From: a virus | Taxonomy: Duplodnaviria > Caudoviricetes | Virus record (IMG/VR): IMGVR_UViG_3300034815_000027 | Span: 1 to 54,389 of that record | Length of the DNA: 54,389 bases | Strand: one strand, 5' to 3' | Made by a program: the position numbers and the translations under genes | The notes under the pieces: generated by a model | What the model was told of the DNA's origin: nothing | Database searches by the model: none | What the model saw: the letters and a program-made list of their open reading frames with translations, nothing else | Part shown: positions 1 through 18,880 of the stretch, piece by piece | How positions within the stretch are numbered: the first letter of the stretch is position 1 | Layout: each line of letters starts with the position of its first letter

Positions 1-190
1 CGGGCCGCTGCTTGCGACGCTGCTTGCGACGCTGCTGACGCTGCTGACGCCGCTCGGGCCGCTGCTTGCGACGCCGCTTGGGCCGCTGCTTGCGACGCCG
101 CTGGGGCCGCTGCTTGGGACGCTGCTTGCGACGCTGCTGACGCTGCTGACGCTGCTGACGCCGCTCGGGACGTTGCTTGGGCCGCGGCTC
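1..190 (+). repeat. Imperfect 9/12-bp coding tandem repeats (GCTGCTGAC, GCTGCTTGCGAC)
   Basis: Directly visible repeat units encoding AAD, AACD and AAWA. Confidence 0.9.
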
Positions 191-285
191 TCGCGTGGCT
201 CGTGAAAGACAAAATCAGCGACGAGCAATTCCGCACGCTTACCGAAGCATGGTACGCAGTCATCAAAGACGAGGAGGAAACATGA
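1..285 (+). CDS. Ala-rich low-complexity repeat protein, 5' truncated
   Basis: Frame 1 is open from base 1 (RAAACDAACDAADAA...AWLVKDKISDEQFRTLTEAWYAVIKDEEET*). Its TGA overlaps the next ATG (ATGA 282-285). Not in the ORF track. Confidence 0.8.
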   Translation, partial: RAAACDAACDAADAADAARAAACDAAWAAACDAAGAAAWDAACDAADAADAADAARDVAWAAALAWLVKDKISDEQFRTLTEAWYAVIKDEEET

Positions 286-458
286 GTACCCACTACATAC
301 ACATCAATTGCCCGCGCTGCGATAAAACAGAATCCGTCTATACGGGAAGTCAAGACACCGAAGATTTCGATGACAGTGATTGGGAAGGAAGTTTCATCTA
401 CACCGACTGCATCGAGTGCAAGGGGAACAATCTGGCTGTTCTTGGGGAGGTGGAGTGA
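282..458 (+). CDS. Small zinc-ribbon protein
   Basis: GAGGAGG RBS, ATG at 282, CxxC...CxxC (CPRC, CIEC). Confidence 0.7.
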   Translation: MSTHYIHINCPRCDKTESVYTGSQDTEDFDDSDWEGSFIYTDCIECKGNNLAVLGEVE

Positions 459-535
459 TGGAACACGACGAGTTCTGTCCTCGCGCAACCTGCGATGGCG
501 GCGGTTGTCCCGACTGTACGGAGGAAGATGTATGA
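458..535 (+). CDS. 25-aa Cys-rich peptide (MEHDEFCPRATCDGGGCPDCTEEDV)
   Basis: GGAGG RBS, TGATG overlap upstream and ATGA overlap downstream. Confidence 0.55.
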   Translation: MEHDEFCPRATCDGGGCPDCTEEDV

Positions 536-825
536 ACAATCCAACCGCAACCCATGTGCTGTACGTAACAATCCCCGTCCCGATTGAGGCAACACCGGAT
601 ACCACGCCACAGGATGCCGTCCGAATGGCCCTACAGGGCATCCGTGAGGGCCTAACGGGCGGTGTAGTTAGTGCTGTAGCGGTGTCACATATCAAGGTCG
701 TACCGTTGCGCCACGGGCTTCACGCGGTCCCGTCACCGGAACTGTTCGACCAAGACGCACCGATCAACTACATCCTTACCGACAAAGCGTACGATAATCT
801 GACAGAAGGAGACGACTATGCATGA
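532..825 (+). CDS. Hypothetical protein
   Basis: GGAGG RBS before ATG 532, coupled to neighbours. Confidence 0.65.
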   Translation: MNNPTATHVLYVTIPVPIEATPDTTPQDAVRMALQGIREGLTGGVVSAVAVSHIKVVPLRHGLHAVPSPELFDQDAPINYILTDKAYDNLTEGDDYA

Positions 826-1069
826 CATGTTCAAGGGCCTAAACGTTGGCGACAAGATTCGTGTAGACTACGAGGAGGGTGCAATCGAGGGCACCTTCTC
901 AATCTTCGAGTCCTCCGCTCCTGTCGCCTACGGTGTCCCGGTGGTAAACACCAGCGGTTGCTCGCGCAGGCTCTACAACTGCGACGCGGTGGTCAAGGTG
1001 ACCGTGCTCGAAAAGGCGGGCACCGTCAAAAACATTGAAGTCGTCTACGAAGCGCCGGAGGCACCGTGA
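818..1069 (+). CDS. Hypothetical protein, homolog of 44384-44746
   Basis: AAGGAG RBS. GDKIRVDYEEGAIEGTF matches GDKIRVEYADGAVEGVF. Confidence 0.7.
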   Translation: MHDMFKGLNVGDKIRVDYEEGAIEGTFSIFESSAPVAYGVPVVNTSGCSRRLYNCDAVVKVTVLEKAGTVKNIEVVYEAPEAP

Positions 1070-1455
1070 GCGACGACATGCCACACAAGCGGCGCACGAT
1101 AAGGCCCCCATCAAACTCCTACAGCATCGACGCGACCGCAAACATTAGGCCACGATTCATCGACGGCTGGCCGACAAAGGCCGCATGTCACGGAAGGTGG
1201 GATGAGTTCGACGGAGTGCGAAAGGAGACGCGCGCGGTCTGCTGGAACGAGTGCACTGTACGCAAGGAGTGTCTTGCATCGTCTCTCGCTTTCGAAAAGG
1301 AGATGGAGAGCCGACCGCAGGGAGCCGACCACGAGTTCGGTTCCGGTACGGGAAGGCGGTATTGGAGACACGGAACTAGAGGCGGCTACAAGCCGGGGGA
1401 GCGTGCTAGGATTGCTGCCGAACTAGCGAGGGGAGCCGACATGACCGCATACTGA
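1066..1455 (+). CDS. whiB: WhiB-family transcription regulator (divergent)
   Basis: W..KAAC, C-x3-C-x5-CL and a G.RGG...ER turn motif. Confidence 0.75.
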   Translation: MSDDMPHKRRTIRPPSNSYSIDATANIRPRFIDGWPTKAACHGRWDEFDGVRKETRAVCWNECTVRKECLASSLAFEKEMESRPQGADHEFGSGTGRRYWRHGTRGGYKPGERARIAAELARGADMTAY

Positions 1456-1492
1456 GTGTACCACATAGCACCACCACACCAAGCAATTCACT

Positions 1493-1533
1493 GGCCCTTC
1501 ACTGTGGGATTATCCCACGGTGGGGGGCCTTTT
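1493..1533 (+). terminator. Intrinsic terminator
   Basis: Long stem ggcccttcactgtggga / tcccacggtggggggcc followed by TTTT. Confidence 0.75.
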
Positions 1534-1566
1534 GCGCGCCCTCGAGAAAACGCCTTTTAGAAATGC

Positions 1567-1595
1567 TTGGGATATTGCGGTCGGTGTGCTACACT
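1567..1595 (+). promoter_or_regulatory. SigA-type promoter
   Basis: TTGGGA-N17-TACACT with a TGn extension, just after a terminator and upstream of the replication operon. Confidence 0.55.
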
Positions 1596-1686
1596 TGAAA
1601 TAACAACAACAACTAACAACCGACGAACATACCCGACCCCGGAGGGGGAGGGGGTGTGAGGAGGTTGTTGTAACGGAGAGTCATAC

Positions 1687-2538
1687 ATGACAGTGAAGAT
1701 CAATGGGTACCCCCTCCCGGGCCACCTCTCGTATTCGGCACTCACCACGTACCAGTCCTGTGGGCAGAAGTATTACCTGAGCCGCATCGAGAAGCGTGCC
1801 GAGGTTCCCGCATGGTGGTTCGCTGGCGGTAACGCCGTCCACAGTGCGACGGAAGAAATCGACAGGCTGTATCCGAGTGTAGCGGAACTCACCGCTGCGG
1901 CCAAGGATATCTCCGACACAAACTTTTTCCTTGACGCGTTCGCCTATCATGTTGCGGAGACGCTGGATGATGTTGGTGAGGATGTGCCGGTGGGTTGGCG
2001 TTCTGGTGGTCGAGCCACGAAGGCGTTTCCCGATAAAGAGAATGATGACTGGTGGATTGCGAACGGTCCGGGTATGGTCCGTAATTGGATCAACTGGCGC
2101 ATCGGGTGCGGCTGGGATCTTGCCGTGTTTGACGGGTTGCCTGCTATCGAACTCGGGTTCGACTTTGCTCTCGGTGAGGGGGAGGACGAGTTTGCGGTTC
2201 GCATGTTTTTGGATCGCCTGTTTGTGACATCGGATGGGCAACTGGTTCTTGTTGATTTGAAGAGTGGCGCGTCTACTCCGAAGGATAATCTTCAACTTGG
2301 AATGTATGCGTATGGGGCTGAGAAATGCTTGGGAATCCGGCCCGCGTATGGTACATTTTGGAAAGCAAGAGACGGTATCACAACGCAGTTGGTCGATCTT
2401 GAGCCGCTGTCGAGTGAGCGAGTGGAGTCCATTGTGGTGGGTTTCGACAAACTGCGGAAGCAGGGCATTTTCCTTCCGAACTTGAGTGAGTGCGGTTGGT
2501 GTGGTTTCAAGGATACGTGCGAATGGGGTAAGGTATGA
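1687..2538 (+). CDS. PD-(D/E)XK (RecB/Cas4-like) exonuclease
   Basis: HLSYS..TY..CG.KY, G.AVH, LDRL...LVDLKSG, QL..YA and C-terminal C-x2-C-x5-C. Confidence 0.88.
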   Translation: MTVKINGYPLPGHLSYSALTTYQSCGQKYYLSRIEKRAEVPAWWFAGGNAVHSATEEIDRLYPSVAELTAAAKDISDTNFFLDAFAYHVAETLDDVGEDVPVGWRSGGRATKAFPDKENDDWWIANGPGMVRNWINWRIGCGWDLAVFDGLPAIELGFDFALGEGEDEFAVRMFLDRLFVTSDGQLVLVDLKSGASTPKDNLQLGMYAYGAEKCLGIRPAYGTFWKARDGITTQLVDLEPLSSERVESIVVGFDKLRKQGIFLPNLSECGWCGFKDTCEWGKV

Positions 2539-3020
2539 CAGAGGCAAGGTTTTCTTTCACAACGAAGATCGGCAACGATCTGTTCACGGTCAGGGGTGAC
2601 ACGTTCGATGAGTTCCAGTCTAATGCGATCGCTGCAGGCGCGGTGCAGGGCATCGGTGTGCTCCTTGCGGCTCTCAATGGTGAACTGTATCCTGCGGCTA
2701 CTGCTTTGGCCACAGCGAATGTTGCTGCGGGCCTCGGTGCACAGCCCGTCCAACCGTCGTATCCGAATGGTGCGGCACCGGGTGACCCGTTTGGAGGATC
2801 GTTTACTCCGCAGCAAGGGTACACTCCTAGCGCAGCAACGCCACCTCCGGTGACTGCTGGCACGAAGACGTGTCAGCACGGCCAGATGGTGAAGCGTACA
2901 GGTGTTGGCGCTAAGGGCGAGTGGCGTGCATGGTTCTGCCCCACCCCGAAGGGCACTGAGGGTCAGTGTTCCCCTGCTTTCGCAGATAAGCGCAATCCCT
3001 CGGAGTGGAACGCCTTCTAA
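2535..3020 (+). CDS. Conserved-type phage protein with C-terminal Cys/His zinc motif (possible ssDNA-binding role)
   Basis: Pro/Ala linker followed by C.HG.M..R.G...W.AWFCP...QC, directly after the nuclease. Confidence 0.6.
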   Translation: MTEARFSFTTKIGNDLFTVRGDTFDEFQSNAIAAGAVQGIGVLLAALNGELYPAATALATANVAAGLGAQPVQPSYPNGAAPGDPFGGSFTPQQGYTPSAATPPPVTAGTKTCQHGQMVKRTGVGAKGEWRAWFCPTPKGTEGQCSPAFADKRNPSEWNAF

Positions 3021-3540
3021 CAACTGAATCCCGTCACTCTTTCCGGACGTGACGGATGCTCGAGGTGGATGCTCCTTTGCTACCCACGCTATAGCCCTCG
3101 AGAGCCTGCGGTGGACAGACCCCGGGGATCGCTTAGGCGTTGCCCGTGGTAGGTGATGCTAAACGATGCACACCGACTCCACGAAAGCCACGCGGCAGGC
3201 ACCTTAACGAAGCGTGCAGCACTGAACATGGTGTACGCTCAGTTCGTACCGAAAATTTCGCCGTGGGCGCATCATGCTAGGGGTTCAGCCCGATGCGGCT
3301 CTGCAAACCCACTAGGTACGAAAGCCTGCGGCAGTCGGGGACATCCCCCGCTGCGCGGCAGGCACCAAATCTAGGCCGGTCCGCTGATGCATCCCCTATA
3401 TGACGCATCAAGACTGATACACCGTCAACTAGGAGACGAGTGTAGGGCGTCATCGGCGCTACGCCATTCGGCACCGATGGCCCGTTCCGCTGGGCGGTTT
3501 GATGGCGTGGTTCGAATCCACGACGGGCGCGTGAAACAAG
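3021..3540 (+). ncRNA. Candidate large structured non-coding RNA ending in a tRNA-like T-arm/acceptor helix
   Basis: At least eight consecutive stems, a duplicated covarying motif and a CGTGG-TTCGAAT-CCACG T-arm. No convincing CDS. Confidence 0.65.
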
Positions 3541-3547
3541 GAGACAC

Positions 3548-4024
3548 ATGAATACTGAATTGATGTTTTCGTCTAAGGACCAAACTTGGACTACACCGAA
3601 AGACTTTTTCGACAAGTGCAACGAAGAGTTCGACTTTGTCCTCGATGCCGCTGCGCTACGAGCATCCGCTCTATGCGAACAGTGGTACGGACCAGACCAT
3701 AGCGACGAATATCGACGCAACGCATTCGATAGAGACTGGTGCCTAGACGCTGCCGGTGGCTCCATCTGGTTGAATCCTCCATATGGGCGCGCAATTTCTG
3801 CATGGATGCGTAAAGCAAACGTTGAAGCGATGCGTGGTGCTACAATTGTGTGTCTCGTCCCATCCCGCACAGACACGAAATGGTTCCACAACTTCTGCAT
3901 CCATCACGAGGTTCGCTTCCTGCGCGGCAGGCTGAAGTTTGGTGGCAATGCGAACTCTGCGCCATTCCCATCGGCTCTGGTGGTCATGCGTCCAGAAACG
4001 GCCATAATCCACTACGGAGAATGA
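3548..4024 (+). CDS. Phage DNA N6-adenine methyltransferase (Dam-like family)
   Basis: W.TP, F.LDAAA, WLNPPYG, LVPSRTDTKWFH, RGRLKF and APFPS motifs. AAGGAG RBS. Confidence 0.92.
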   Translation: MNTELMFSSKDQTWTTPKDFFDKCNEEFDFVLDAAALRASALCEQWYGPDHSDEYRRNAFDRDWCLDAAGGSIWLNPPYGRAISAWMRKANVEAMRGATIVCLVPSRTDTKWFHNFCIHHEVRFLRGRLKFGGNANSAPFPSALVVMRPETAIIHYGE

Positions 4025-4806
4025 TGAAAACACTACACCGCAGCGTCGGCAAAGCAGACCTTGGGGGCGAACCCATCCCCTACGCATTCCGTGCATTCAA
4101 AGAAATGGGCATCGCCGTCAGACGTGGTGAAGTCTCCATGATCGCAGGCATTCCCGGTGCGGGCAAATCTACTTTGGCCTTAGCGATCTCACTCCGCTCC
4201 AAGGTGCCAACCCTGTACGTGTGTGCCGACACTAACGCTCACACCATCGCCACCCGCCTCTACAGCATGATTGTTGGCGTGTCGCAGAAGGACGCAGAGA
4301 TCGTGTTGGAGCATGCACCGGAACAGGCGAAGGACCGCCTGAAAGACACCAACAACATCTACTGGTGCTTCGATTCAAGCATAGATCTTTACACCATTGA
4401 TGAAGAGTTGAAAGCGTTCGAGGAACTGCGCGGGGAACCCCCACACCTTATGATCGTGGACAACCTGATTGACCTTACGGGAGGCGTTGTTGAATCCGCA
4501 GCGGCACAGGAAGCATTGCAGGCTCTCAAACTCTTCGCCCGTGAGAATAACACGGCTGTCGTGGTCCTACACCACACGAAGGAAGGGTTCGTGGGCAACC
4601 CTTGCCAGCCAATGTCCGCTGTGCAGGGCATGGTCAATCAAACGCCTGCCCTTATCCTCACGGTTGGACAGGCTGCAGGCAACATGTTCGGTGTGGCTGC
4701 CGTCAAAAATCGTTACGGTAAATCTGACAACTCGGGATCGCATCCCGTATGGCTAGAGTTTGCACCAGACTGGATGTACATGTCTGATCTACCGGAAGGA
4801 AGATGA
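4021..4806 (+). CDS. DnaB/RecA-fold replicative helicase
   Basis: Walker A GIPGAGKST, Walker B MIVDNL, VVLHH and KNRYG arginine finger. Confidence 0.88.
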   Translation: MMKTLHRSVGKADLGGEPIPYAFRAFKEMGIAVRRGEVSMIAGIPGAGKSTLALAISLRSKVPTLYVCADTNAHTIATRLYSMIVGVSQKDAEIVLEHAPEQAKDRLKDTNNIYWCFDSSIDLYTIDEELKAFEELRGEPPHLMIVDNLIDLTGGVVESAAAQEALQALKLFARENNTAVVVLHHTKEGFVGNPCQPMSAVQGMVNQTPALILTVGQAAGNMFGVAAVKNRYGKSDNSGSHPVWLEFAPDWMYMSDLPEGR

Positions 4807-5087
4807 TGCTGCGAGTAACAATTGAATTGGTTCCCGGCGGCGATGAAGACCGCGCCCATGTGATTGAACAGATGACCATTGCGAACATTAGCGATCTGGC
4901 TGACGTGTCGGATTACGACTATGCGTTTACAGAGCGCGGAAAGATTCGCTACGGTCGCAAGTATGGACACCATCGTGCAGACGGAGCATGGGATCTCGTA
5001 TGGGGCATCTTGGATATGCCAATGAGCATTTGTAATGACCCTCAGTCTTATACGCAGAAGCGTCTCGCGGAAAGGTTCTTGAAATGA
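4803..5087 (+). CDS. Hypothetical protein
   Basis: Coupled ORF with RBS. Confidence 0.65.
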   Translation: MMLRVTIELVPGGDEDRAHVIEQMTIANISDLADVSDYDYAFTERGKIRYGRKYGHHRADGAWDLVWGILDMPMSICNDPQSYTQKRLAERFLK

Positions 5088-5404
5088 GTGACACCGAATA
5101 CACGGCAGAAACCGAGGAGATGCGCCTCATCTTCAGTGAGGCCGGTGCCGGTCACTACTGGGACGTGATTGCGGAGGAGCAGGGGGAAACTTTCGACGCA
5201 TGGTTCAAGCCCTACGCCGACGCTCTCGCCGCTATCCAGCGAGTAAGGGAACTGCACGCACCGACTGGTGAAGTTGTTCGATGCCCGGATAACAAGCCCG
5301 GTTGCTGTGTCATCCATTACAGCAATCGCCGAGTCTGCTCGAACTGTTACGGCGTCTATCCCTGCACGACGATACGCGCTCTTGATGGAGAGGTGACGCC
5401 ATGA
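5084..5404 (+). CDS. Hypothetical Cys-containing protein
   Basis: Coupled ORF. AIQRVRELH.P...CxxC...YPC.T..AL motif typical of actinophage small genes. Confidence 0.7.
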   Translation: MSDTEYTAETEEMRLIFSEAGAGHYWDVIAEEQGETFDAWFKPYADALAAIQRVRELHAPTGEVVRCPDNKPGCCVIHYSNRRVCSNCYGVYPCTTIRALDGEVTP

Positions 5405-5706
5405 ACGTCTACGACTCACCTGAAGCGTTCGGCCTGACAACTGTTGCCGTGCTCGACGCCGACGTGTCGTACGAGTTTGATCGCGTCGTTCTCTGGCGCG
5501 GCCACAACACATTCTGGTGGCAGCACGACTCCGGCTGCTCATGCCCGGTGCCGTTCGAGAAGTTCAACGGGCTACCCGACCTGTGCAGCGGCAACAACTA
5601 CGCCGAGTTCGAGGCGTGGCTCCGCGACATGGAGTCGTACCACACATGGCCGCTCACGCGGGTCATGGATTTCCTGTCAACAGTTCGGAGGGCGATGCAG
5701 CCATGA
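5401..5706 (+). CDS. Hypothetical protein (DSGCSCP motif)
   Basis: GGAGAGG RBS, ATGA overlaps. Confidence 0.7.
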   Translation: MNVYDSPEAFGLTTVAVLDADVSYEFDRVVLWRGHNTFWWQHDSGCSCPVPFEKFNGLPDLCSGNNYAEFEAWLRDMESYHTWPLTRVMDFLSTVRRAMQP

Positions 5707-5930
5707 GCATCCTCATTGACGAAGCCTGCCAGTGCGGGGAACGCTTCGACCGCTGGCTTGCCGCTCACGACAAGGAAGTGTTGGAGAAGGCGGCAGAGCG
5801 TGTCGCCGCAGTCGGCCCCCGGTACAACGACTACGAAGGCATACGCGAAGGCATCTTGGAAGAGCCTGACGGATGGCTCATTGACCGCGACAGCGCGCTC
5901 ACTGCTGTCCGTGGGGAAGATGCCAAGTGA
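5703..5930 (+). CDS. Hypothetical protein
   Basis: ATG 5703 overlaps the previous stop. Corresponds to the C-terminal part of track ORF 5517-5930. Confidence 0.65.
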   Translation: MSILIDEACQCGERFDRWLAAHDKEVLEKAAERVAAVGPRYNDYEGIREGILEEPDGWLIDRDSALTAVRGEDAK

Positions 5931-6280
5931 CCACACCATCAAAGGCGAAAGGAGACCGCCATGAACGGGCAATCGCCGAATACCTTGCAAGTAAAGGCTG
6001 GAAACGGGCTGTTAGACGCGGTGGAGCAGGCGCTACGAACGATCGAGGAGACATTGATGGCATCTACGGATGTGTCATCGAGGCTAAAGACGAGAAACGT
6101 CATGATTTTTCTGGATACCTCCGAGAACTTGCCGATGAAGTTCGAAATGCGAAGGCCTCCACAGGGGTCGCCATCATCAAAAAGCGGGGAACTTCAAATG
6201 TCGGTGACTATTACGCTTTGATGACAGTGGACATGTGGGTAGACTTGATGAAGGAGGCAGGGTACGGTGACACGCGATGA
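5927..6280 (+). CDS. Holliday junction resolvase (PD-(D/E)XK, actinophage type)
   Basis: SKAKG...ER....YL...G, D.GDI.G, IEAK. Confidence 0.85.
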   Translation: MTTPSKAKGDRHERAIAEYLASKGWKRAVRRGGAGATNDRGDIDGIYGCVIEAKDEKRHDFSGYLRELADEVRNAKASTGVAIIKKRGTSNVGDYYALMTVDMWVDLMKEAGYGDTR

Positions 6281-6641
6281 CAAAGCAGACAAGCACTCCA
6301 TCGGGCCGGTCTTCGCACACTACGGTGGTGAAACTCCTCGTGCTACTAACCGTTGGGTATCTGTACGGTGTCCTTTCCACGGCGATCACACCGCATCTGC
6401 CGCAATCAATCTTGAAGAGAACGCCTTCGCCTGCTACGCATGCGACATCAAAGGCGACACGTACGCAGTAATCATGCAACACGAAGGGATCGGTTTCCGT
6501 GAGGCTTACCAGCGCGCAGAAGACCTCACTGGGGAGAGCCGCCAAATCGTACGCGGGTTCGGTGGCGCTGGCGGAAGACTATCTCGCCACTCGAGGTCTC
6601 ACCTTGGACGTAGCGCGTCGAGCCGGTTTAGGAGTCGTTGA
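6267..6641 (+). CDS. Primase zinc-binding (CHC2) subunit
   Basis: CPFHGD...SA.IN...F.CYAC...GD. Confidence 0.88.
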   Translation: MTRDDKADKHSIGPVFAHYGGETPRATNRWVSVRCPFHGDHTASAAINLEENAFACYACDIKGDTYAVIMQHEGIGFREAYQRAEDLTGESRQIVRGFGGAGGRLSRHSRSHLGRSASSRFRSR

Positions 6642-7122
6642 TGTCCCACACGAAGGACATGAAGCCATGGTGGGAAGACTGTCAATACCATACGTCACTG
6701 CGAGCGGAGTCGTGGACATACGTTTTCGTGCAATTGGTGGAGAAGAACCCAAGTACATGGGACTTGCTGGTGCAAAGACTCACATGTACAACGTGCGGGC
6801 GATTGAAGCCGCTGCCTCCACGCTATGTGTATGTGAAGGGGAACTAGATGCGATCACGCTACAGTTCGCGGTCGGCCTCATGGCGGTGGGTCTTCCCGGC
6901 GCTAATAGTTGGAAAACTCATTACCGACGCCTGCTACAGGACTTTGACAAGATCTATGTCTTCGCTGACGGGGACAAAGCGGGTCACGATTTCGCACGCC
7001 ATCTCGCTCGGGAAGTACAAGGAGTGATCGTTGTACCGATGGAAGAAGGAGAAGACGTGAATAGCACATACCTCAAGTATGGTCCGGAATATCTCAAAGA
7101 GAAGGTGAAGAATGACGAATGA
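6499..7122 (+). CDS. Primase Toprim catalytic subunit
   Basis: YL..RG, RLSIPY, KY, VCEGELDAI, DGDKAG and DVN motifs. Confidence 0.9.
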   Translation: MRLTSAQKTSLGRAAKSYAGSVALAEDYLATRGLTLDVARRAGLGVVDVPHEGHEAMVGRLSIPYVTASGVVDIRFRAIGGEEPKYMGLAGAKTHMYNVRAIEAAASTLCVCEGELDAITLQFAVGLMAVGLPGANSWKTHYRRLLQDFDKIYVFADGDKAGHDFARHLAREVQGVIVVPMEEGEDVNSTYLKYGPEYLKEKVKNDE

Positions 7123-7639
7123 TGCAGCAGGACACGCAGGATCTACTGGACATGCTACGGCAGGTCGGGCTGACGCCTGTGACTGTGAAGTTCCTAAGCC
7201 GCGAACAGCGGAATGGCGAAAGACCGTACCTACAGTACGAGATCCGCGTACTGATCCCCGAAACCTTACCATCTTGAAGCCGACGCCGAAGCCGGTGAAG
7301 AAGCCGCTCACGGTTGGCTCCTACAAGAAGATCAACGCCGATTCTCTCGGGGACCCCGCAGTGTTCACCATGAACGCGGTGAAGATTGCTGACGAGGTTG
7401 TGAAGATCGTCGCGTCGAAGCAGAAGGATTACGGCCCGAACAACATTCAGTCCAGCCCATTCGGTGCCATCAAGGGTCTCACGATCCGCCTGTACGACAA
7501 GATTGCGCGACTAGCGAACCTGTCAGAGAAGAGCAAGACGCCCGAGAATGAGTCCCTCCGTGACACGTTCATCGACATTGCGGGCTACGGTATCATCGGT
7601 TTGATGCTGCTCGACGGCACCTTCCCCAAGGAGAAGTAG
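7112..7639 (+). CDS. Nucleotide-modification-associated domain protein (DUF1599/Nmad1-like)
   Basis: KQKDYG..NI, RL.DK.ARL.NL, ESL.DT..DIAGY. Confidence 0.8.
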   Translation: MTNDAAGHAGSTGHATAGRADACDCEVPKPRTAEWRKTVPTVRDPRTDPRNLTILKPTPKPVKKPLTVGSYKKINADSLGDPAVFTMNAVKIADEVVKIVASKQKDYGPNNIQSSPFGAIKGLTIRLYDKIARLANLSEKSKTPENESLRDTFIDIAGYGIIGLMLLDGTFPKEK

Positions 7640-8398
7640 ATGCAGCGGTTCGTGGTGCTTTCTGACATGCAGTGCCCAGACGAGTCCAGACAACTAGTTC
7701 GAGCAGTACAGCAGTTCGTGAAAGACTACGAACCGGACCAATTGCTCTGCGTAGGTGACGAAGCGGACAGTCCCGAACCGTCACGATGGAACAAGGGCAC
7801 CGCAGGAGAGTACGTGGGAACGCTGCAGAAGGGTTTGGATAGGACGCATGAAGTCATCGCCGGTTTCAGGGAGGCGCTCGGAGACAAGCCCTTCCACATC
7901 CAGCGCAGCAATCACGGCGATCGGATCAGGAACTACATCAATCGATACGCTCCTGCACTCGCTTCGCTCCGTTCGCTCCACTATGAGCACCTTCTCGGAT
8001 ACGATACATTGGATGTTACGTACCACACGAACATCTACAAGTTCGCTCCCGGATGGGCCATGGCGCATGGAGACGAAGGCAATCTTATTCGCACTGCAGG
8101 AGGAACTGCTTTGTCTCTTGCGAGACGTACGGGAGTCAGTATCGTATGTGGACACACACACAGGCTCGGCATTCAGCACGAGCACAGCGCCTACAACGGC
8201 AGGTTGAACGCAAGTCTCTTCGGGGTGGAGGTGGGTCACATGATGGACCTGTCCAAAGCCTCATACTTGAAGTCGGGCGGGGCAAACTGGCAGGCTGGTT
8301 TCGGTGTGCTGTATGTGGATGGGTCGAAGGTGACGCCATACGTCATCCCCGTCGCAGGCCGATCGTTCATAGTTGAAGGACAGAAGTATTCATGGTAA
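7640..8398 (+). CDS. Calcineurin-like metallophosphoesterase
   Basis: SD.Q, GDE.D, SNH, HGD and GHTHR motifs. Confidence 0.88.
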   Translation: MQRFVVLSDMQCPDESRQLVRAVQQFVKDYEPDQLLCVGDEADSPEPSRWNKGTAGEYVGTLQKGLDRTHEVIAGFREALGDKPFHIQRSNHGDRIRNYINRYAPALASLRSLHYEHLLGYDTLDVTYHTNIYKFAPGWAMAHGDEGNLIRTAGGTALSLARRTGVSIVCGHTHRLGIQHEHSAYNGRLNASLFGVEVGHMMDLSKASYLKSGGANWQAGFGVLYVDGSKVTPYVIPVAGRSFIVEGQKYSW

Positions 8399-9084
8399 TC
8401 AACGCATACTTCCAAGAAGGCAAAACCATCAACGAACAGGTGTACCTGCAGTACGAACCGATGGTACGACGCATCGCTAGTGAGTATGCACGCAAGTTCC
8501 GCATGCTGGACCGTGACGACATGGCTCAGGAAATGTGGATGTGGTTCCTTCAGCATCCGGGTAAGACCCGAACATGGATGGCTATGCCACTGCAAGATGG
8601 CGACAAGTTGTTCGCCCGCAGCCTGCGCAACCATGTCATGGGATTCTGCGTGAAGGAGAAGGCGAGAGTGGAAGGCTATGAGGTCAGTGACAACTTCTGG
8701 TACACGAAGGACTTCATCAAGCAGTTGCTTCCCGCCGTCATCAGTGAAGACTGGAAGCGTGTACAGGCCTCATTCGAGGGCGGTGTGGGTGGCACTAAAC
8801 CGGCAAATGAGTCAGGCGATTGGATGGCCTACGCCGTCGATGTTCGGAGGGCCTACGATGCTCTTCCTATTGCTGACCGTAATCTGGTGGAAATGTTTTA
8901 CGTGAACGACTCGAGCGGTGTGGCACTACAGGAAGCAGCGGAGAAACCCTCGGTACGTGCCGCTGAAATGGCAGCAAACAGGGCGGTGGCGAAAATGGTT
9001 CGCTACCTTGGTGGGGAGCGCCCCTACCTGAAGCCAGAACCCGACTACAAAGACAGACCCACAAAGGAAGAGGAAACGGAATGA
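8392..9084 (+). CDS. Phage sigma-factor-like protein
   Basis: Region-2-like (IA....RK....DDMAQE.W) and region-4-like C-terminus. Confidence 0.7.
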   Translation: MVINAYFQEGKTINEQVYLQYEPMVRRIASEYARKFRMLDRDDMAQEMWMWFLQHPGKTRTWMAMPLQDGDKLFARSLRNHVMGFCVKEKARVEGYEVSDNFWYTKDFIKQLLPAVISEDWKRVQASFEGGVGGTKPANESGDWMAYAVDVRRAYDALPIADRNLVEMFYVNDSSGVALQEAAEKPSVRAAEMAANRAVAKMVRYLGGERPYLKPEPDYKDRPTKEEETE

Positions 9085-9290
9085 TTTTCGAAATCGCTGC
9101 AGGCGTGTTCATCGGCAACAGCATCTCTATGGGTGCTATCGCAGGCGTCAACCTTTGGCTAGAGCGAAAGACTTCCAAGCAGAAGGAGGCCCTGATGGTG
9201 AAGTTGCTGAAGGATGCTGAAGCGTACGAGAAGACGTTGGTGAAGCCCGTGAAGAAGACGGCATCACCGACACGGACGGTGAAACCGTGA
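9081..9290 (+). CDS. Small membrane protein
   Basis: N-terminal hydrophobic helix, basic tail. Confidence 0.65.
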   Translation: MIFEIAAGVFIGNSISMGAIAGVNLWLERKTSKQKEALMVKLLKDAEAYEKTLVKPVKKTASPTRTVKP

Positions 9291-9448
9291 TCGTCTCGAG
9301 TTTCCACTGTGACCAGTGTGGTGCGGTAAAGACCAACCTGCTGGGATTCGCCGTTCCAGACAACTGGATCGAGGTCACTGCTAGCGGTTTAGACCCCCGC
9401 TACTTCTGCTGCAACATGTGCTTCAAGAAGGCAATTGGCGGAGGCTGA
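9287..9448 (+). CDS. Small zinc-binding protein (CDQC...CCNMC)
   Basis: GTGA overlap, 53 aa, fills the gap between genes. Not in the ORF track. Confidence 0.6.
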   Translation: MIVSSFHCDQCGAVKTNLLGFAVPDNWIEVTASGLDPRYFCCNMCFKKAIGGG

Positions 9449-9450
9449 GT

Positions 9451-9645
9451 ATGGCCCGGTACGACTATTTCTGCCGCAACTGTGAAGTTGCTGAAGAGAT
9501 TCAGTGGCCTATCACTGAGAGCGAACCAGAGGGCGGGCACCCGTGTCCACGCTGCGGGCATCGGATGATGCGCCAGTACATTCTCAATCCAGCCATCCAT
9601 TTCAAGGGATTCGGTTTCTACTCTAAAGACAAAGGACAATCATGA
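9451..9645 (+). CDS. FmdB-like zinc-ribbon protein
   Basis: Y.Y.C..C...CP.CG..M.R.....AIHFKG.GFYSKD. GGAGG RBS before ATG 9451. Confidence 0.8.
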   Translation: MARYDYFCRNCEVAEEIQWPITESEPEGGHPCPRCGHRMMRQYILNPAIHFKGFGFYSKDKGQS

Positions 9646-9926
9646 AGAAGTACCAGTACACAATTGATGCGGTTCAGGTGGAGAACAAGTATCACAACAC
9701 CATCACCGGAAAGAGAAAGTATCGTAATACGGTACTTCATGATACCCGGGTGCGCATCACGGTGTATGCAAACAGTGGCTACAATCTACGTCTCGCGGTT
9801 ACTGATGTTCTCGGATACGCAAACGCCGACTGCTACTGGAAGTGGAATGTCATCTCCGCCGAAGAGATGCTCGAGGAGGTGCCGGATGGCTTCGAAGAAG
9901 ACTGCGACGAAACGTGTCGGTGCTGA
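9642..9926 (+). CDS. Hypothetical protein
   Basis: AAAGGA RBS, ATGA overlap. Confidence 0.65.
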   Translation: MKKYQYTIDAVQVENKYHNTITGKRKYRNTVLHDTRVRITVYANSGYNLRLAVTDVLGYANADCYWKWNVISAEEMLEEVPDGFEEDCDETCRC

Positions 9927-10125
9927 ACAGTACGTCTGGATTGTTCACCGTGGCGGAGGTTCGCTTGCGTTCGGCTCTGAGGCTGGGGCACGCGAAGCGG
10001 CTGGTATCGTGGAGAATACGGTCAATGTCAAGCCGCTCATGGAGAAGATTCGATTCTTCTATGACTCAGCAACCACGGCAGACGTTCAGGACATCCTGAA
10101 GTTACCGATTCAGGTAACCCTCTAG
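9886..10125 (+). CDS. Hypothetical protein
   Basis: GAGGAGG RBS before ATG 9886, ends at the terminator. Confidence 0.6.
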   Translation: MASKKTATKRVGAEQYVWIVHRGGGSLAFGSEAGAREAAGIVENTVNVKPLMEKIRFFYDSATTADVQDILKLPIQVTL

Positions 10126-10129
10126 AAAC

Positions 10130-10187
10130 AAAAATAAGACCCCCAGAAGATACCCTGTATAAAAGGTACCCTCTGGGGGTCTTTCGT
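10130..10187. terminator. Bidirectional terminator between converging arms
   Basis: aagacccccaga / tctgggggtctt stem flanked by A-rich and T-rich tracts. Confidence 0.8.
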
Positions 10188-10229
10188 GTCTCAGAATTGC
10201 GCTATGGGCGTTCTAGGGGCACCCTAGCC

Positions 10230-10574
10230 CTACTTCTTCGGCTTACGCCGCCTATTACCATCGGCAACATTCTTCGAATGCGACATTACGTTCAGGTTCT
10301 TCAAGGAGTCGTGGCCCTTACGGCCACCGTTATCCTTATGGTTCACGTCCACGCTGCGCGGCAACTTCTTGCCGGTCGCCCGCTCATACTTGTAGCGTGC
10401 AGCAGACATAGACGTAGACGAACCGTCCTTCTTGCGAACCACCACCATGGGTCGTCCACCGTTACGTTCAGATCCCTTGTATGGGCCGAAGATTTTCGTA
10501 CCGTCCTTGCGAACTTCGTACTTCTTCGGCTTCGCTTTACTTGCCGCCAAGGGGATCAGTCCACAGTGCGGCAT
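10230..10574 (-). CDS. HNH-like endonuclease (start uncertain)
   Basis: AR..YE...G..L....V.H.D....D...NL......N. Confidence 0.65.
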   Translation of the reverse strand: MPHCGLIPLAASKAKPKKYEVRKDGTKIFGPYKGSERNGGRPMVVVRKKDGSSTSMSAARYKYERATGKKLPRSVDVNHKDNGGRKGHDSLKNLNVMSHSKNVADGNRRRKPKK

Positions 10575-10758
10575 CGGTCTTCGCGTTCTCTACACGCTGG
10601 GCATACTCGCCCAAGCCGAAGGAGGTCAGGACAAAGGTCGTGACTGCTTCCACCGGCATGTCTGGCATTACAACAGCCAGCACAATGGCAACCGTCGAAG
10701 ACACCCACGCCGCAAGACGGGCAGGGTTCCTCTTTGCGAAATCCTTCAACCACTTCAC
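10537..10758 (-). CDS. Putative holin
   Basis: Two hydrophobic helices, next to the endolysin. Confidence 0.65.
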   Translation of the reverse strand: MKWLKDFAKRNPARLAAWVSSTVAIVLAVVMPDMPVEAVTTFVLTSFGLGEYAQRVENAKTDAALWTDPLGGK

Positions 10759-11237
10759 TTCTTCACCGCTTTCTTGATGGGCCGCTGTTCTGCGACTATC
10801 TGCTTAAGTTCCTGTACGAGACCGTACGGACTGTCATCGTCGTCTGCCAATGTAGTAAAGGAGACGTGGATGTGGTGGTTGTGCATGTTGCTTCCAGCAT
10901 ATGACTGCTTCTGCCACTTCGACTTCGCAGACCACATGAAGCCCTCGAAGATGATGTACTTCAACCGCTTGTCTTTTGGACCGAGGGCAATGAGTTTACG
11001 TACCAGCGTGTTCGCAATCTGCGGGTCAGGGAACCTTGCCCCCCAAAAGTCTTCATCAATGTCGATAGCATGCACGATGCCGTTCTCGTCCGGATTGTGA
11101 TCCGAGTCACGCTGCGCGTGAGCCTGATCCCCGAGCGAACCATCAGAAGCCTTGTCCCGATCCGGGAACAGTGCGTTTACTTCATCGCGGAGCCGTTCCG
11201 CTCCTGCGGCTAGACGCCATGCCATTTCATTCCCCAA
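10755..11237 (-). CDS. Endolysin, single-domain Zn peptidase (M15/LAS-like)
   Basis: SDH.P...V.AID and H..HIHVS. Confidence 0.75.
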   Translation of the reverse strand: MGNEMAWRLAAGAERLRDEVNALFPDRDKASDGSLGDQAHAQRDSDHNPDENGIVHAIDIDEDFWGARFPDPQIANTLVRKLIALGPKDKRLKYIIFEGFMWSAKSKWQKQSYAGSNMHNHHIHVSFTTLADDDDSPYGLVQELKQIVAEQRPIKKAVKK

Positions 11238-11457
11238 TCAGATGCTTGTAGATAAGGTCCACCTGACCCTCGATCCGCCCAACGCGGTCCTCGATACCAT
11301 TGATCTTGTCATTCAAAGACGTTCCATGATTCGGCCTCAACTCCCACAGGTAGTGCTTCACCATCCACTTTGCACCCGCCGCCAGAGATCCGATAACTAC
11401 CGTCATGGCGACGAGAAGTTCGGCCACGTCTACCGCCGAAGATGTTGATGCGTTCAC
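11227..11457 (-). CDS. Lysis-cassette membrane protein
   Basis: One TM helix, EL.PN.G.SL.D and a coiled coil. Confidence 0.65.
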   Translation of the reverse strand: MNASTSSAVDVAELLVAMTVVIGSLAAGAKWMVKHYLWELRPNHGTSLNDKINGIEDRVGRIEGQVDLIYKHLIGE

Positions 11458-13676
11458 AGTTTGCGTACCGTCACTCTCAAGATTCCCCCGAAACCGTTGT
11501 GAATGCCGCTCGGAGCCTTTTCGTTCACGAAAGAAATCTGCTCAATGAGCGCATCGAATGCCTCACCTGTACGGAAGTCTTGTACGCGAACAATGTTGGA
11601 TGTCGCCTCGAGATCTTCGAGGTCGAGGAGTCGCGCATATGCACGACCCTTGTAGCCCACCTTGTTGCCAAGGCGGTCCGTGTCGTTGTCGTAGCAGTAC
11701 AGGACATACTGGATAAGACGCTGACGCCGCGACGCTGGAAGTGCCTTCACCTGATAGCCGCTGAGCACAGGACCGTTGCCGGTGGATAGTGCATTGCGCC
11801 GCAGGGTGAAGGTGAAGTAGCGGGACTCGTACGATCCTGCACCACTGATGGCAATGTCCTGATTTCCGTATGCCCCATCGGCAATGCTGACAGTGTTACC
11901 GTCCACACCAACAGCGATAGAGCCACCCCCCGCATAGTCGGCGCGTTCCTTCACGAACTTGAAATACTTATCCTCAGTCGTGTTGTAGCGGATCCTGCCG
12001 GTGGTAATGTAGCCAGTCTCACGTAGTTCGCCTATTTTCTCCGTATACACGGCACCGTCAGTTGAACCGTTGTTCACGGTGGCGAAGGCAAGTGAGGCGG
12101 AGCCGTTGAGGAACGCCACAGCACCAACCACGCGGGGCACACCGTCAGCCTGTAGGTCATTGGCATAGGCGAAGCGCAGTGTGTCCACTTGTGTCCCGAG
12201 GTCGATCCTCACGAGTCCGGCATCGGTGCCGACCTGTGATGCAGCCCACAGGAACCTGTCGTTGCTGGCGAAATCGTACACCGGAAGCACCGTATTGAAC
12301 AGGAGCGGACCGTAGACGATGCCGCCAGCATCCAGTAGTTGTCCGATGCGGACACCTTTGCTGGTACCTATGGCAATGTAGCCGAGGTACGCTTGGATAC
12401 TGTGCACGATCTCACCACGTGGCAGTTCCGCCACCACCACACCAGCAGTCAGGGAAGTGAATGCTCCTGTGGTTTCTAGCGGAAGCCGCCAGATCATCGA
12501 GTTGTCACCAATGTATCCGCTGATGAAGATGTCAGCAGCGGACGAGGTGATGTCAGTGAAGACGGTGCCCTTGGGGGCAGTGAACACTGCGGTGGGCAAT
12601 GCTGCGGAATCACGTGTCAACTCGAACACCTTGCTGGTGCCGCCCGAGGACGCATTGTAGGTGACCGCCGAAATGATGCGGCCCTTCACCCACTCCGAGA
12701 TACCAGAGTCGGTCACGTTGTTCGTGAAGAACATGATGGTCACGTCACCCGTGACAGTACCACCAACAGCAGAACCAGTCGTAGCGTCACCGGCAAGTGG
12801 CTTCTTGTACGTGTACGTCTTGACTGGGGACACCGAAGTGTCCGTGGACACGAAGTAGGCGTACTCGCCGTCGTCACAAGCGAACAGAATGGGGCTTGAG
12901 ACACCGGAAACGAACTCCACGAAGTGGGTCACATTCGAAACAGCAGCACCGGCGGGTGATACGGCAGTTGAGGCTACATCCGCAGCAGTCTTCGCATACG
13001 AGAACGTATCAGTTGCAACCGTGGTGATGGTGTAGGTGCCGTTGAATGTTGCGTCCACACCCGTAACAACAACCTCCATTCCTGCGGTAAACCCGTGGGC
13101 TACAGCGGTAAGCGTTGCGACGTTGGAGGTGAGGGCCTTGTTGGTTACACTTGCAGTGATAGGTGCATAGACCTTATCCAAATCGTAGCCGTCGTGCAGG
13201 AGTGCGGCGGCGATCGTCTTACCGGAGCAGACGTACTGGATTGGGCGCAACTGGACATGCCCGGTGTCCGTAGTGGTCACCCTGTGGGCTTGTTCCACCT
13301 TGTTCAGCAGGGACACTTCCCCCTGCGTCCACACGTCCACACCCTGCGAGTCAGCAAAGCGGTACCGCAACTTTTCGTCCTGTGCCGGTTCATAGAACTT
13401 GATGCCTGCACCGTAGTGGAACGACGACTGCGAACGCATCCACCAGCCCACAAGTGACTGCTCCCCGGGTTCTGCAGAATTGTCCGACTGGTCTTTACGG
13501 TACTGTGCCGTCTCGCGCTGCGAGGGCCGTTCACTGGTACTGGCGTCACGGAATGGCTGATCGTTGATGGAAATGTCGTAGGTGATGCCACGATTAGTGT
13601 ATGTGGTACCAGCAGTAGATGCTGAAAGGTCTACCGCAAGATCCTCGGTGATATCAACTGCCATACGTGTCACCAA
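11454..13676 (-). CDS. Large tail protein (short-tail nozzle/stabilisation-like)
   Basis: 740 aa, beta-rich, located between fibre genes and lysis genes. Confidence 0.6.
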   Translation of the reverse strand: MVTRMAVDITEDLAVDLSASTAGTTYTNRGITYDISINDQPFRDASTSERPSQRETAQYRKDQSDNSAEPGEQSLVGWWMRSQSSFHYGAGIKFYEPAQDEKLRYRFADSQGVDVWTQGEVSLLNKVEQAHRVTTTDTGHVQLRPIQYVCSGKTIAAALLHDGYDLDKVYAPITASVTNKALTSNVATLTAVAHGFTAGMEVVVTGVDATFNGTYTITTVATDTFSYAKTAADVASTAVSPAGAAVSNVTHFVEFVSGVSSPILFACDDGEYAYFVSTDTSVSPVKTYTYKKPLAGDATTGSAVGGTVTGDVTIMFFTNNVTDSGISEWVKGRIISAVTYNASSGGTSKVFELTRDSAALPTAVFTAPKGTVFTDITSSAADIFISGYIGDNSMIWRLPLETTGAFTSLTAGVVVAELPRGEIVHSIQAYLGYIAIGTSKGVRIGQLLDAGGIVYGPLLFNTVLPVYDFASNDRFLWAASQVGTDAGLVRIDLGTQVDTLRFAYANDLQADGVPRVVGAVAFLNGSASLAFATVNNGSTDGAVYTEKIGELRETGYITTGRIRYNTTEDKYFKFVKERADYAGGGSIAVGVDGNTVSIADGAYGNQDIAISGAGSYESRYFTFTLRRNALSTGNGPVLSGYQVKALPASRRQRLIQYVLYCYDNDTDRLGNKVGYKGRAYARLLDLEDLEATSNIVRVQDFRTGEAFDALIEQISFVNEKAPSGIHNGFGGILRVTVRKL

Positions 13677-14043
13677 CCTTCATTGTTGTATCGAGTGGAA
13701 CTCCAACAAATGTCGGATTGGAAAGAAGCAGCGATGTCATCCTGTCGTCGGCATTCAGAATGTCCTGAACCACGCCATCAACAATAACAAGCACCTTCTG
13801 TGGAGGTGTGTCAAGAACACGAACCTGACCCCACTTGTGCTGGGGGCAGGAGGCGTTCGGTAGTTTCGTTTTCAACGCCATAAAGCAGTGACATTCGGTG
13901 CACTGTCCAACACTGTTGAAGAAGGGGCATTCGCGGCAGATTGCCATGCGTTGTGCGGCAACCTCTGTCTCCACGCGCCCGAGCGCCTTGTTGAACAGAT
14001 CAAATAGTCTCGCATCACGGGCAAAAGTATCACTCATTGACAT
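13654..14043 (-). CDS. CxxC-rich adhesin partner (DUF6171-like plus small C-terminal domain)
   Basis: C-x2-C-x7-C-x2-C-x-C-x13-CP..KW. Homolog at 21652-22029. Confidence 0.7.
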   Translation of the reverse strand: MSMSDTFARDARLFDLFNKALGRVETEVAAQRMAICRECPFFNSVGQCTECHCFMALKTKLPNASCPQHKWGQVRVLDTPPQKVLVIVDGVVQDILNADDRMTSLLLSNPTFVGVPLDTTMKVGDTYGS

Positions 14044-14048
14044 AATCC

Positions 14049-15062: not shown

Positions 15063-15065
15063 AGG

Positions 15066-15659: not shown

Positions 15660-15662
15660 GCC

Positions 15663-16556: not shown

Positions 16557-16566
16557 GTCTTATCCT

Positions 16567-16818
16567 CTACTTCTTCTTCATCATCTTGGCCATGTTGGCT
16601 TCGCTCATGGCGATCGCTAGCGCCTGCTTCTTCGACTTGACGACAGGCCCCTTCTTGCTGCTCGAGTGGAGGCTTCCCGCCTTGAACTCGTGCATCACCT
16701 TCGCCACCTTCTTGGCGGCAGGCTTTCCGTACTCCTTCTTGCGCTCCTTCGCGCCCTCAGAGCCTTCGTGCTTCTTCATCGCGGCGGCAGATGCGTACTT
16801 CTCGCCCTTGACTGACAT
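16567..16818 (-). CDS. Basic protein, DUF6496-like
   Basis: KV.KVMHEFK.G.LHS...GP.VKS.KQA.AIA.SEA. Confidence 0.75.
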   Translation of the reverse strand: MSVKGEKYASAAAMKKHEGSEGAKERKKEYGKPAAKKVAKVMHEFKAGSLHSSSKKGPVVKSKKQALAIAMSEANMAKMMKKK

Positions 16819-18870: not shown

Positions 18871-18880
18871 TGTGTTTCCT

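Follow-up and report, generated by a model that had tools for sequence, protein, structure and literature searches.

What fills the 527 nt that separate two genes of the replication operon in an actinophage-like virus, known from a single 54,389-bp IMG/VR virus record (IMGVR_UViG_3300034815_000027; here the window)? Upstream of this gap lies a gene whose product carries the C-terminal domain of mycobacteriophage L5/D29 gp49 (gp49-like), and downstream a gene for a Dam-type adenine methyltransferase. The gap is real, since the gp49-like open reading frame (ORF) stops at position 3020 and the Dam ORF begins at 3548. A first-pass annotation had suggested that it holds either one undescribed structured RNA of ~510 nt or a polycistronic precursor of small RNAs. 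Here we report that 3021–3547 is non-coding and that, instead of one giant RNA, it comprises a series of modules that fold separately. On sequence comparison, we consider it probable that these modules form an RNA island related to Proteo-phage-1 (RF03044), an orphan phage RNA family.

All eight stems that had been claimed for the gap turned out to be perfectly Watson-Crick (3031–37/3049–55, 3059–65/3096–3102, 3104–09/3195–3200, 3243–50/3315–22, 3324–29/3358–63, 3385–90/3405–10, 3451–56/3474–79 and 3480–85/3523–28, plus strand), and two further stems, 3263–67/3308–12 and 3268–73/3292–97, were read within 3243–50/3315–22. The minimum free energy of the plus strand of 3021–3540 was -220.4 kcal/mol, compared to -197.2 ± 7.2 kcal/mol for 100 dinucleotide shuffles (z = -3.21; 0/100 as good). 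Among 39 consecutive 260-nt segments covering bases 1–10140, scanned with only 25 shuffles per segment, segment 3121–3380 had the lowest plus-strand z (-3.04; minus strand -1.86). The gap is indeed tiled with stems, and it contains the most structured stretch of the first 10 kb.

Two pairs of repeats organize the region: CGCGGCAGGCACC occurs twice without a mismatch and CGA(G/A)AGCCTGCGG twice in nearly identical form, and together they form the bases of two hairpins, at 3103–3203 and 3323–3366. (An internal tandem duplication of ~107 nt, considered from the repeats D4 and D5, was rejected as not significant beyond the 13-mers.) Each hairpin closes a unit of the same layout, namely a front domain, a helix that ends flush against a single A, a 6-bp GCCUGC/GCAGGC base helix, a small internal loop that is asymmetric and rich in G, an upper helix that varies in sequence and covaries, and ACC at the 3′ end. 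The hairpin core in each unit reads A-GCCUGC-GG...CGCG-GCAGGC-ACC.

We searched public collections for the gapped core AGCCTGCGG-N15–45-CGCGGCAGGCACC and found it at 7 viral, 50 metagenome and 30 genome loci, many of these matches being chance occurrences inside G+C-rich coding DNA. The 68 distinct matches were split solely by the 4 nt upstream of the core, the hairpin not being considered. When preceded by CGAN (n = 15), a core could form all four inner pairs in 11 matches and three of four in the other 4; the matches without CGAN (n = 53) had mostly 0–2 of the four. Both window copies belong to the CGAN class. In an alignment of 18 hand-picked members, all four inner pairs change on both sides, and 90% of the inner-pair cells pair, as against at most 57% overall with a slid partner. 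The length of the flush helix does not separate the family from chance matches in G+C-rich DNA; fixed spacing and motif do. A pattern with a longer gap (70–100 nt) had no match in viral contigs.

A model of the hairpin, R1, found exactly two copies in the window and none in the related records L002–L005 or in HK022. A model-based alignment of 36 hairpins, which was fitted to the model and hence leans towards it, had 97.1% of its cells paired (slid controls, at most 60%); 6 of 10 pairs change on both sides, and one base-helix pair occurs as U-A in 24, A-U in 7 and G-C in 5 sequences. Both helices of the closing hairpin covary across the 36 sequences. Four of the six base-helix pairs are invariant, and G-U pairs are present in the upper helix. 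The hairpin exists in two forms, a short one with an interior of 15–50 nt and a long one with an interior of 75–80 nt that includes a GUGGG/CCCAC inner helix.

The same hairpin stands behind a catalogued RNA. Proteo-phage-1 (RF03044) comes from the candidate set of Weinberg et al., 2017 (PMC5737381); its name has no occurrence in the main text of that paper, and a full-text literature search for it returned none. Rfam lists RF03044 as type 'Gene; sRNA', with 82 positions and no assigned function. In 7 of 13 scanned family loci, the RF03044 match ends at ...CCGAC-AGCC, that is, with the first four bases of the hairpin. We removed the bias of the core pattern by sampling through RF03044's own 5′ half plus CCGACAGCC, which gave 42 viral loci with 37 distinct downstream sequences. 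In 33 of the 37, a helix follows whose two strands are exact 6-nt complements, and five different helix sequences were seen (GCCAGC 19, GCCTGC 7, GCCGGC 5, GCCTAC 1 and GCCAGG 1); among the four failures, one is cut by a contig end, two are off by one position and one is unclear. In the 33 closed sequences (viral-contig loci among L007, L045 and L094–L131), the RNA extends another 30–120 nt beyond the RF03044 model into the covarying hairpin. We conclude that the RF03044 entry, listed as an 82-nt motif, appears to cover only the front of a longer RNA whose conserved closing hairpin was missed, and that two copies of the back half are present in the window.

How close is this relationship? The window units share with the hairpin that follows RF03044 in 7 loci the core of 9 + 13 nt, the internal loop and the 3′ ACC; their base helix is of the type seen in the 33 sequences sampled through the RF03044 5′ half, a helix lies flush against the single A before the hairpin, and short and long hairpin forms occur in both. 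By contrast, the Rfam model itself (two 5′ hairpins plus tail) gives no window match at E ≤ 10, and none in the whole window at its gathering score (42 bits); at 7 of 13 other loci the same search recovers it. In our own reading, the RF03044 tail pairs with the loop of the second hairpin to form a pseudoknot, whereas the window tails pair with the start of their domain (3059–65 and 3243–50) to form a nested helix. The window also has two tandem units and a tRNA (transfer RNA)-like end, and these lie in an actinophage-like replication operon rather than a proteobacterial packaging or tail operon. RF03044 is further defined by its occurrence in proteobacterial phages and prophages; the replication proteins of the window match actinophages instead. 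An extended tail-plus-hairpin definition of our own, which is not part of the Rfam model, describes both window units: a tail CGA(N)-A-GCC pairs back and is followed by GCCNRC...GYN'GGC and then A(C/U)(C/U). RF03044 was not found in five whole genomes reached via loci L066, L067, L069, L070 and L087. The island appears to be an actinophage-borne, tandem variant of the Proteo-phage-1 family, the shared part lying outside the Rfam model, and its different front domains seem analogous to RF03044, not detectably homologous. The idea of a new non-coding RNA consequently holds in part. No Rfam family matched the window at gathering thresholds, and a search at E ≤ 10 on 2900–3700, 3200–3335 and 3021–3115 returned noise only; on the other hand, two of the modules carry the hairpin that follows RF03044 elsewhere.

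In every family member, the bases just before the single A pair with an upstream partner, which is GUCGG...CCGAC in the RF03044 type, CUCGG...CCGAG in others, and CUCGAGG...CCUCGAG and UUCGUACC...GGUACGAA in the window. Because these sequences differ among types, the closing pair beside the A varies between G-C, C-G and U-A. The constant nucleotides cluster at the fork: they comprise the final pairs of the flush helix, the A behind it, the six base pairs, the small G-rich asymmetric loop and the A-C-C. Tandem units were seen a second time at L040:11384–11517, where two short hairpins lie 94 nt apart; a CUCGGGG...CCCCGAG helix precedes each, and in the first UGG replaces ACC. On the minus strand of L015, which has a high G+C content, a long and a short closing hairpin (216–323 and 718–768) flank a 55-aa ORF, which looks Lsr2-like. 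The second of these hairpins lies in a ~390-nt gene-free stretch, a candidate further actinophage RNA island.

From 5′ to 3′ on the plus strand, the window island consists of a hairpin, two diverged tandem units (3059–3203 and 3243–3366), three hairpins and a degenerate tRNA-like domain. The first hairpin (3031–3055) has a stem of 7 bp, CCGTCAC/GTGACGG, with 7/7 pairs, and begins 10 nt past the gp49-like stop codon; it has no U tract, and the terminator scan lists nothing there. In Unit I, the helix 3059–65/3096–3102 of the front domain (3059–3102) lies flush against A3103 and encloses a small GTGG/CCAC hairpin. This geometry, (N)UCG...CGA(N) directly before A-GCC, is shared by 17 of 18 family rows with the CGAN motif. 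The closing hairpin of Unit I (3103–3203) is of the long form: A3103 is followed by base helix 3104–09/3195–3200, a GG/CGCG internal loop and inner helix 3111–14/3188–91, and ACC occupies 3201–03. It scored 40.7 bits (E = 8e-7) with R1, outside whose seed it lies, and by eye it resembles the ~75-nt-interior form of proteobacterial loci, with GUGG/CCAC where the long family form has GUGGG/CCCAC. A linker hairpin, AGCGTGCA/TGTACGCT (3211–3239), was seen in minimum free energy folds and has eight pairs, one of them G-U.

The front domain of Unit II (3243–3322) is closed by helix 3243–50/3315–22, flush against A3323, and contains the two enclosed stems given above. Its closing hairpin (3323–3366), of the short form, comprises A3323, base helix 3324–29/3358–63, inner helices 3331–34/3351–54 and 3336–40/3346–50, and ACC at 3364–66; it scored 53.4 bits with R1, although it is a member of the R1 seed. 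Behind the units stand a 6-bp hairpin (3385–3410, stem 3385–90/3405–10), a hairpin found by sequence read-out and repeat search (3418–3444, TACAC-CGTC/GACG-A-GTGTA with loop AACTAGGA) and a third, CATCGG/CCGATG (3451–3479). The tRNA-like domain (3480–3528) has a 6-bp acceptor-like stem (3480–85/3523–28), a mini hairpin (3487–90/3494–97) and a perfect T arm (3506–10/3518–22) with loop TTCGAAT, and ends 20 nt ahead of the Dam start codon. The Dam ribosome-binding site AAGGAG and the ATG fall within 3535–3550. We noted that the motif AAC(T/A)AGGAGAC of this ribosome-binding site (3535–3545) has a second copy 108 nt upstream (3427–3437), in the loop of hairpin 3418–3444, where it is followed by GTG-TAG, a start codon immediately followed by a stop. 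Collectively, this anatomy did not bear out a single RNA of ~510 nt. A string of smaller RNAs, the other suggestion, fits it; the processing of a precursor is a proposal only, to which we return below.

A natural variant adds to this picture. In run X19, a freshwater metagenome, a near-identical relative, identical over 151 nt of Dam, is represented by a 151-nt contig that covers 3334–3485. Ten substitutions and one deletion fall within 3387–3403, replacing the apex of hairpin 3385–3410, and two changes fall in the remaining ~134 nt. By inspection, pair 3387–3408 is lost, new inner pairs form and the hairpin is kept. The change looks like a patch exchange rather than even drift.

Could the gap instead encode small proteins? 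Two ORFs come into question, 3153–3374 (73 aa) and 3387–3551 (54 aa), and the stop codon of the second overlaps the Dam start as ATGA, which is typical of translational coupling. Nevertheless, when codon usage was scored as log-odds after training on 14 of the phage's own genes, each of which scored positive (at least 0.076; range +0.08 to +0.36), all eight gap ORFs scored between -0.23 and +0.01, with 0.002 for ORF 3153–3374 and -0.158 for ORF 3387–3551. ORF 3153–3374 had no match in Pfam or PHROGs, so the coding signal that would have spoken against an RNA was not found; it also spans two RNA modules whose lengths differ among relatives by non-multiples of three, and hairpin interiors across the family (15–44 nt) are likewise not multiples of three. 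No Shine-Dalgarno sequence precedes 3387, and the X19 variant both changes A3387 of the only ATG and, by its 1-nt deletion at 3403, shifts the frame of ORF 3387–3551. We therefore regard a coding role as extremely improbable.

The distribution of the element among relatives was informative. A metagenome contig of 1995 nt (L047) encodes a gp49-like C-terminus (47% identity over 38 residues) and, after a gap of 286 nt, a DnaB-like helicase 35% identical to that of the window (E = 7e-40). Its gap holds a core hairpin (484–524), then a second hairpin, built alike but with a different base helix and with ACCA behind it (minihelix and tRNA-like stretch together, 545–663), and finally a well-folded tRNA-like domain of 76 nt (588–663) with a 7-bp acceptor stem whose third pair is G-U. 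This domain, with an unpaired D region, a 7-bp arm, a T arm and no normal anticodon loop, is not called by ARAGORN or Rfam; it is better formed than its window counterpart and occupies the same relative place. It resembles the tRNA-like domain of transfer-messenger RNA (tmRNA), without the tag. A local alignment of the two gaps is collinear from hairpin to T arm (window 3323–3522 with L047 484–656). The actinophage form thus adds tandem units and a tRNA-like end to the family and keeps its place before the replicative helicase at 35% helicase identity.

Closer relatives (OX376640, L003 and L004; helicase 47–52% identical) have neither Dam nor an RNA element: between the gp49-like gene and the helicase there is either nothing or 85 nt and a 33-aa ORF. 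Searches of L002–L005 with the gap by nhmmer and blastn returned nothing. Because L047 has the element and the closer relatives do not, the element is a lineage-specific insert, patchy among related phages. In cultured Streptomyces phages (helicase identity at most 41%), a dCMP deaminase gene lies directly before the helicase, with no gap. The best relatives of Dam, which lies between element and helicase, are in unrelated phages at 50% identity or less; no close relatives of the Dam query were found in viral or metagenome contigs, and none of the L047 helicase in viral contigs.

Such patchiness raises the possibility that the gap is a relic or a selfish insert, made of decayed tRNA genes or of a mobile RNA cassette that arrived with Dam. 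The T arm is perfect in an otherwise broken cloverleaf, the 527 nt plus Dam are missing from L002–L004, and the family occupies different positions in different phages. However, the core is identical across very distant phages and the helices covary, which argues for selection on the hairpin, and the near-identical relative keeps 132 of 134 flanking positions while one hairpin apex changes. None of the 185,579 species' genomes scanned contains the 24-nt string of T arm plus acceptor. Decay or selfish insertion is hardly a probable account. An attP derived from a host tRNA was also considered and dropped, as neither the 26-nt nor the 24-nt T-arm string matched anything in the viral and genome contigs searched.

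The wider family led to a different genomic setting. The viral contig L094 (12 kb) carries an integrase and, further on, capsid, protease, portal, HNH, a small ORF, terL, the RNA and a gp6-like head-tail connector, with the RNA co-oriented with terL and the gp6-like gene. We take this gene order to be the layout of capsid-forming phage-inducible islands. L094 also carries an inserted insertion sequence (IS) transposase in this satellite-like layout. Other proteobacterial loci have the RNA ahead of a small ORF, which a tape-measure-like gene follows, and at 15 inspected loci a gene in the same orientation as the hairpin begins 8–185 nt downstream of it. The occurrence of an identical 22-nt core in proteobacterial satellite-like islands and in actinophage-like viruses points to a target conserved across bacteria.

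These settings bear on whether the inverted repeats work as DNA, for instance as an origin, as single-strand initiation signals or as binding sites of replication proteins. The element does lie between replication genes in both the window and L047; both strands fold alike, the window stems being Watson-Crick only, and there are two copies each of a 13-nt and a 13-nt (92%) direct repeat. Yet the same hairpin is found in proteobacterial packaging and tail operons, always co-oriented with the genes, and the upper helix of the family contains G-U pairs. The region has no A+T-rich stretch (G+C 0.566 in 3001–4000, compared to 0.53–0.60 across 1–20000), and the repeated motif does not occur beyond chance elsewhere in the window. 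A role as DNA is, in our judgement, improbable; the G-U pairs, the co-orientation with downstream genes and the co-orientation in L094 favor RNA. A consensus scan found no promoter and no terminator within 3021–3547, and the simplest reading is therefore that the operon transcript includes the region. We infer that the island acts as plus-strand RNA within that transcript.

What might such an RNA do? Read from the alignments, the closing hairpins have a G-C first pair, a single purine before it, a 3′ A-C-C, about 12 stacked pairs and an A/U-rich trailer, and a tRNA-like domain lies at the end of both actinophage islands (window and L047). The determinants of RNase P and the CCA end include a G-C pair at the first position, purine-C-C at the 3′ end and some 12 stacked pairs. 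By analogy, the closing hairpins could be tRNA-acceptor-like minihelices and, jointly with the tRNA-like domain at the island's end, could attract the host's tRNA-maturation enzymes. RNase P would cut 5′ of G3104, G3324 and G3480, and 3′ trimming would be next. At the single A, a cut would give the upstream RNA a structured 3′ end and the downstream RNA a 5′ hairpin. Cutting would either yield segments of the polycistronic transcript whose ends are structured and protected, or free small stable RNAs, and either way the expression of Dam and helicase would be uncoupled from that of the upstream genes. That minihelices direct the processing of the operon transcript in this manner is a possibility we put forward tentatively. 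The family gains a testable anatomy in any case, with junction nucleotides, predicted cleavage sites and a natural variant of a hairpin apex, and cultivable proteobacterial hosts offer an entry point.

Several observations weigh against this interpretation or against parts of it. First, the minus strand of 3021–3540 folds equally well (z = -2.92; 1/100 shuffles as good), and the eight stems, being purely Watson-Crick, give no strand signal from the window alone. The 3′ third by itself folds no better than shuffles (3386–3535, z = -0.51; 3437–3532, +0.88; 3478–3532, +0.15). Comparative support does extend to four of the eight stems, namely both GCCTGC/GCAGGC helices, which correspond to the covarying family helix, and both flush helices, which have a family counterpart. 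Conservation of the exact core is partly an artefact of the exact-pattern search, and the front domains have no RF03044 match at E ≤ 10 in the three intervals searched. Nineteen sequencing runs matched 2700–3900, with no RNA run among them; the 18 strong matches are sediment metagenomes of one year, 15 of them possible sources of the contig. As for processing, the nucleotides 5′ of the proposed RNase P cut are held in a helix up to -2, and ACC trails only 21 of the 32 closed sequences with a readable tail, AUU, AAC, ACU and others also occurring. Recognition of shape by RNase P leaves the constant sequence of the base helix, with its four invariant pairs, unexplained. Lastly, only 11 of 51 family loci contain tRNA genes, most of which lie at contig ends, and where tRNA genes adjoin the hairpin (L121 and L126) they are on the opposite strand; co-transcription with tRNAs is therefore not general.

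In a rival reading, the units act in cis on transcription. Either the nascent two-stem structure would bind elongating RNA polymerase in the manner of put and alter pausing and termination, or front domain and hairpin would form an attenuator that governs how far transcription continues into Dam and helicase. In PMC9378689, the HK022 put RNAs are described as processive antiterminators in which the fork of two stems is the polymerase-binding platform, and which act as nascent RNA in cis. The put RNAs bind the zinc-binding domain of polymerase β′ and suppress termination. The window units have the same outline as put, two stem-loops parted by one unpaired purine (A3103 and A3323), with irregular, conserved internal loops near the fork (for put, PMC9378689). 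The constant nucleotides of the family, too, cluster at the fork, and a target as conserved as RNA polymerase would explain the identical core in two phyla. By eye, a U run follows the hairpin in several sampled loci (L111, L114 and L121), which is the arrangement of an intrinsic terminator. By contrast, there is no sequence similarity to put, R1 being blank in HK022 and the putL region being unlike the module. The window units are not promoter-proximal, no promoter-like site lies nearby, they have no U tract or obvious alternative pairing, and the scan lists no terminators downstream in the operon. According to PMC9378689, put is known only from lambdoid phages. We consider an action in cis on transcription unlikely, and it is still the main rival to processing by tRNA-maturation enzymes; the DNA-level, relic and coding alternatives rank lower.

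The processing proposal has a bolder extension, in which arrays that mimic tRNA ends, present in phages of at least two phyla, would be excised by host tRNA processing and act in trans. The mimics would be the acceptor-like minihelices with their terminal ACC and, in L047, the tagless tmRNA-like domain with its G-U third pair. The released RNAs would serve as decoys or would compete for enzymes by which tRNA 3′ ends are read or attacked, with the CCA-adding enzyme, acceptor-end-modifying defence toxins and SmpB/trans-translation as candidate targets. We think this decidedly unlikely; if it were true, the Proteo-phage-1 family would represent a new functional class of phage counter-defence or host-takeover RNA.

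Known phage RNAs provide some precedent. P1/P7 C4 and P4 CI are phage RNAs matured by RNase P, and the island, by analogy, would share with them the principle of a non-coding RNA excised from a longer transcript by a host tRNA-processing enzyme. The Rfam C4 family does not match the window; to our knowledge, P4 CI has no Rfam family of its own. As the first-pass annotation had stated from inspection by eye, GOLLD, ROOL, C4 and YrlA are not recognizable here, and an Rfam model of none of them matched. Like GOLLD and ROOL, for which a tRNA neighborhood is reported in PMC5737381, the island is phage-borne and several hundred nt long; unlike them, it is a chain of local modules and not one closed architecture. 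With tRNA and tmRNA, segment 3480–3528 shares the perfect T arm, its TTCGAAT loop and the acceptor-like stem, but it lacks a normal anticodon loop, an encoded CCA and a tag reading frame. ARAGORN at default called no tRNA or tmRNA in the window. At the 80% threshold its only call was a 'tRNA-Cys' of 94 nt whose acceptor has two mismatches and whose anticodon loop is abnormal, and at 50% it offered only an implausible permuted tmRNA with an atypical tag.

The genes around the island, identified by Pfam and PHROGs, all point rightward: a WhiB-like ORF (1066–1455), a PD-(D/E)XK exonuclease (1687–2538), the gp49-like gene (2535–3020), Dam (3548–4024; PF05869, E = 6.5e-22) and the DnaB-like helicase (about 4021–4806). 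We call the virus actinophage-like because, in tblastn searches, exonuclease and helicase matched solely phages of Mycobacterium, Propionibacterium/Cutibacterium, Streptomyces, Rhodococcus, Gordonia and Thermobifida, plus unnamed records, all at <60% identity. The WhiB-like gene and the L5/D29 gp49 domain are present as well. A blastn search with 2535–4024 against 50,697 phage records gave no match.

We noted a second non-coding gap (1456–1686) upstream of the exonuclease gene, with a fold z of -2.27 for segment 1301–1560. It contains, by eye, a G+C-rich terminator-like hairpin and T run at about 1493–1535, not listed by the terminator scan, followed by an A/T-rich stretch and a strong ribosome-binding site before the exonuclease gene. 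Probably one transcription unit ends in this gap and the replication operon begins. Towards the other end of the window, on the minus strand of 50950–51000, a T-arm-like GGTTCGAGTCC is followed by an acceptor-like strand; ARAGORN does not call a full tRNA, and the site coincides with a dip in G+C to 0.61. It may be the tRNA 3′ fragment of an attachment site. The G+C content of the window is 53–60% over bases 1–20,000 and 61–70% beyond, and this jump at about 20 kb, together with the T-arm-like segment, suggests that the record joins two different elements.

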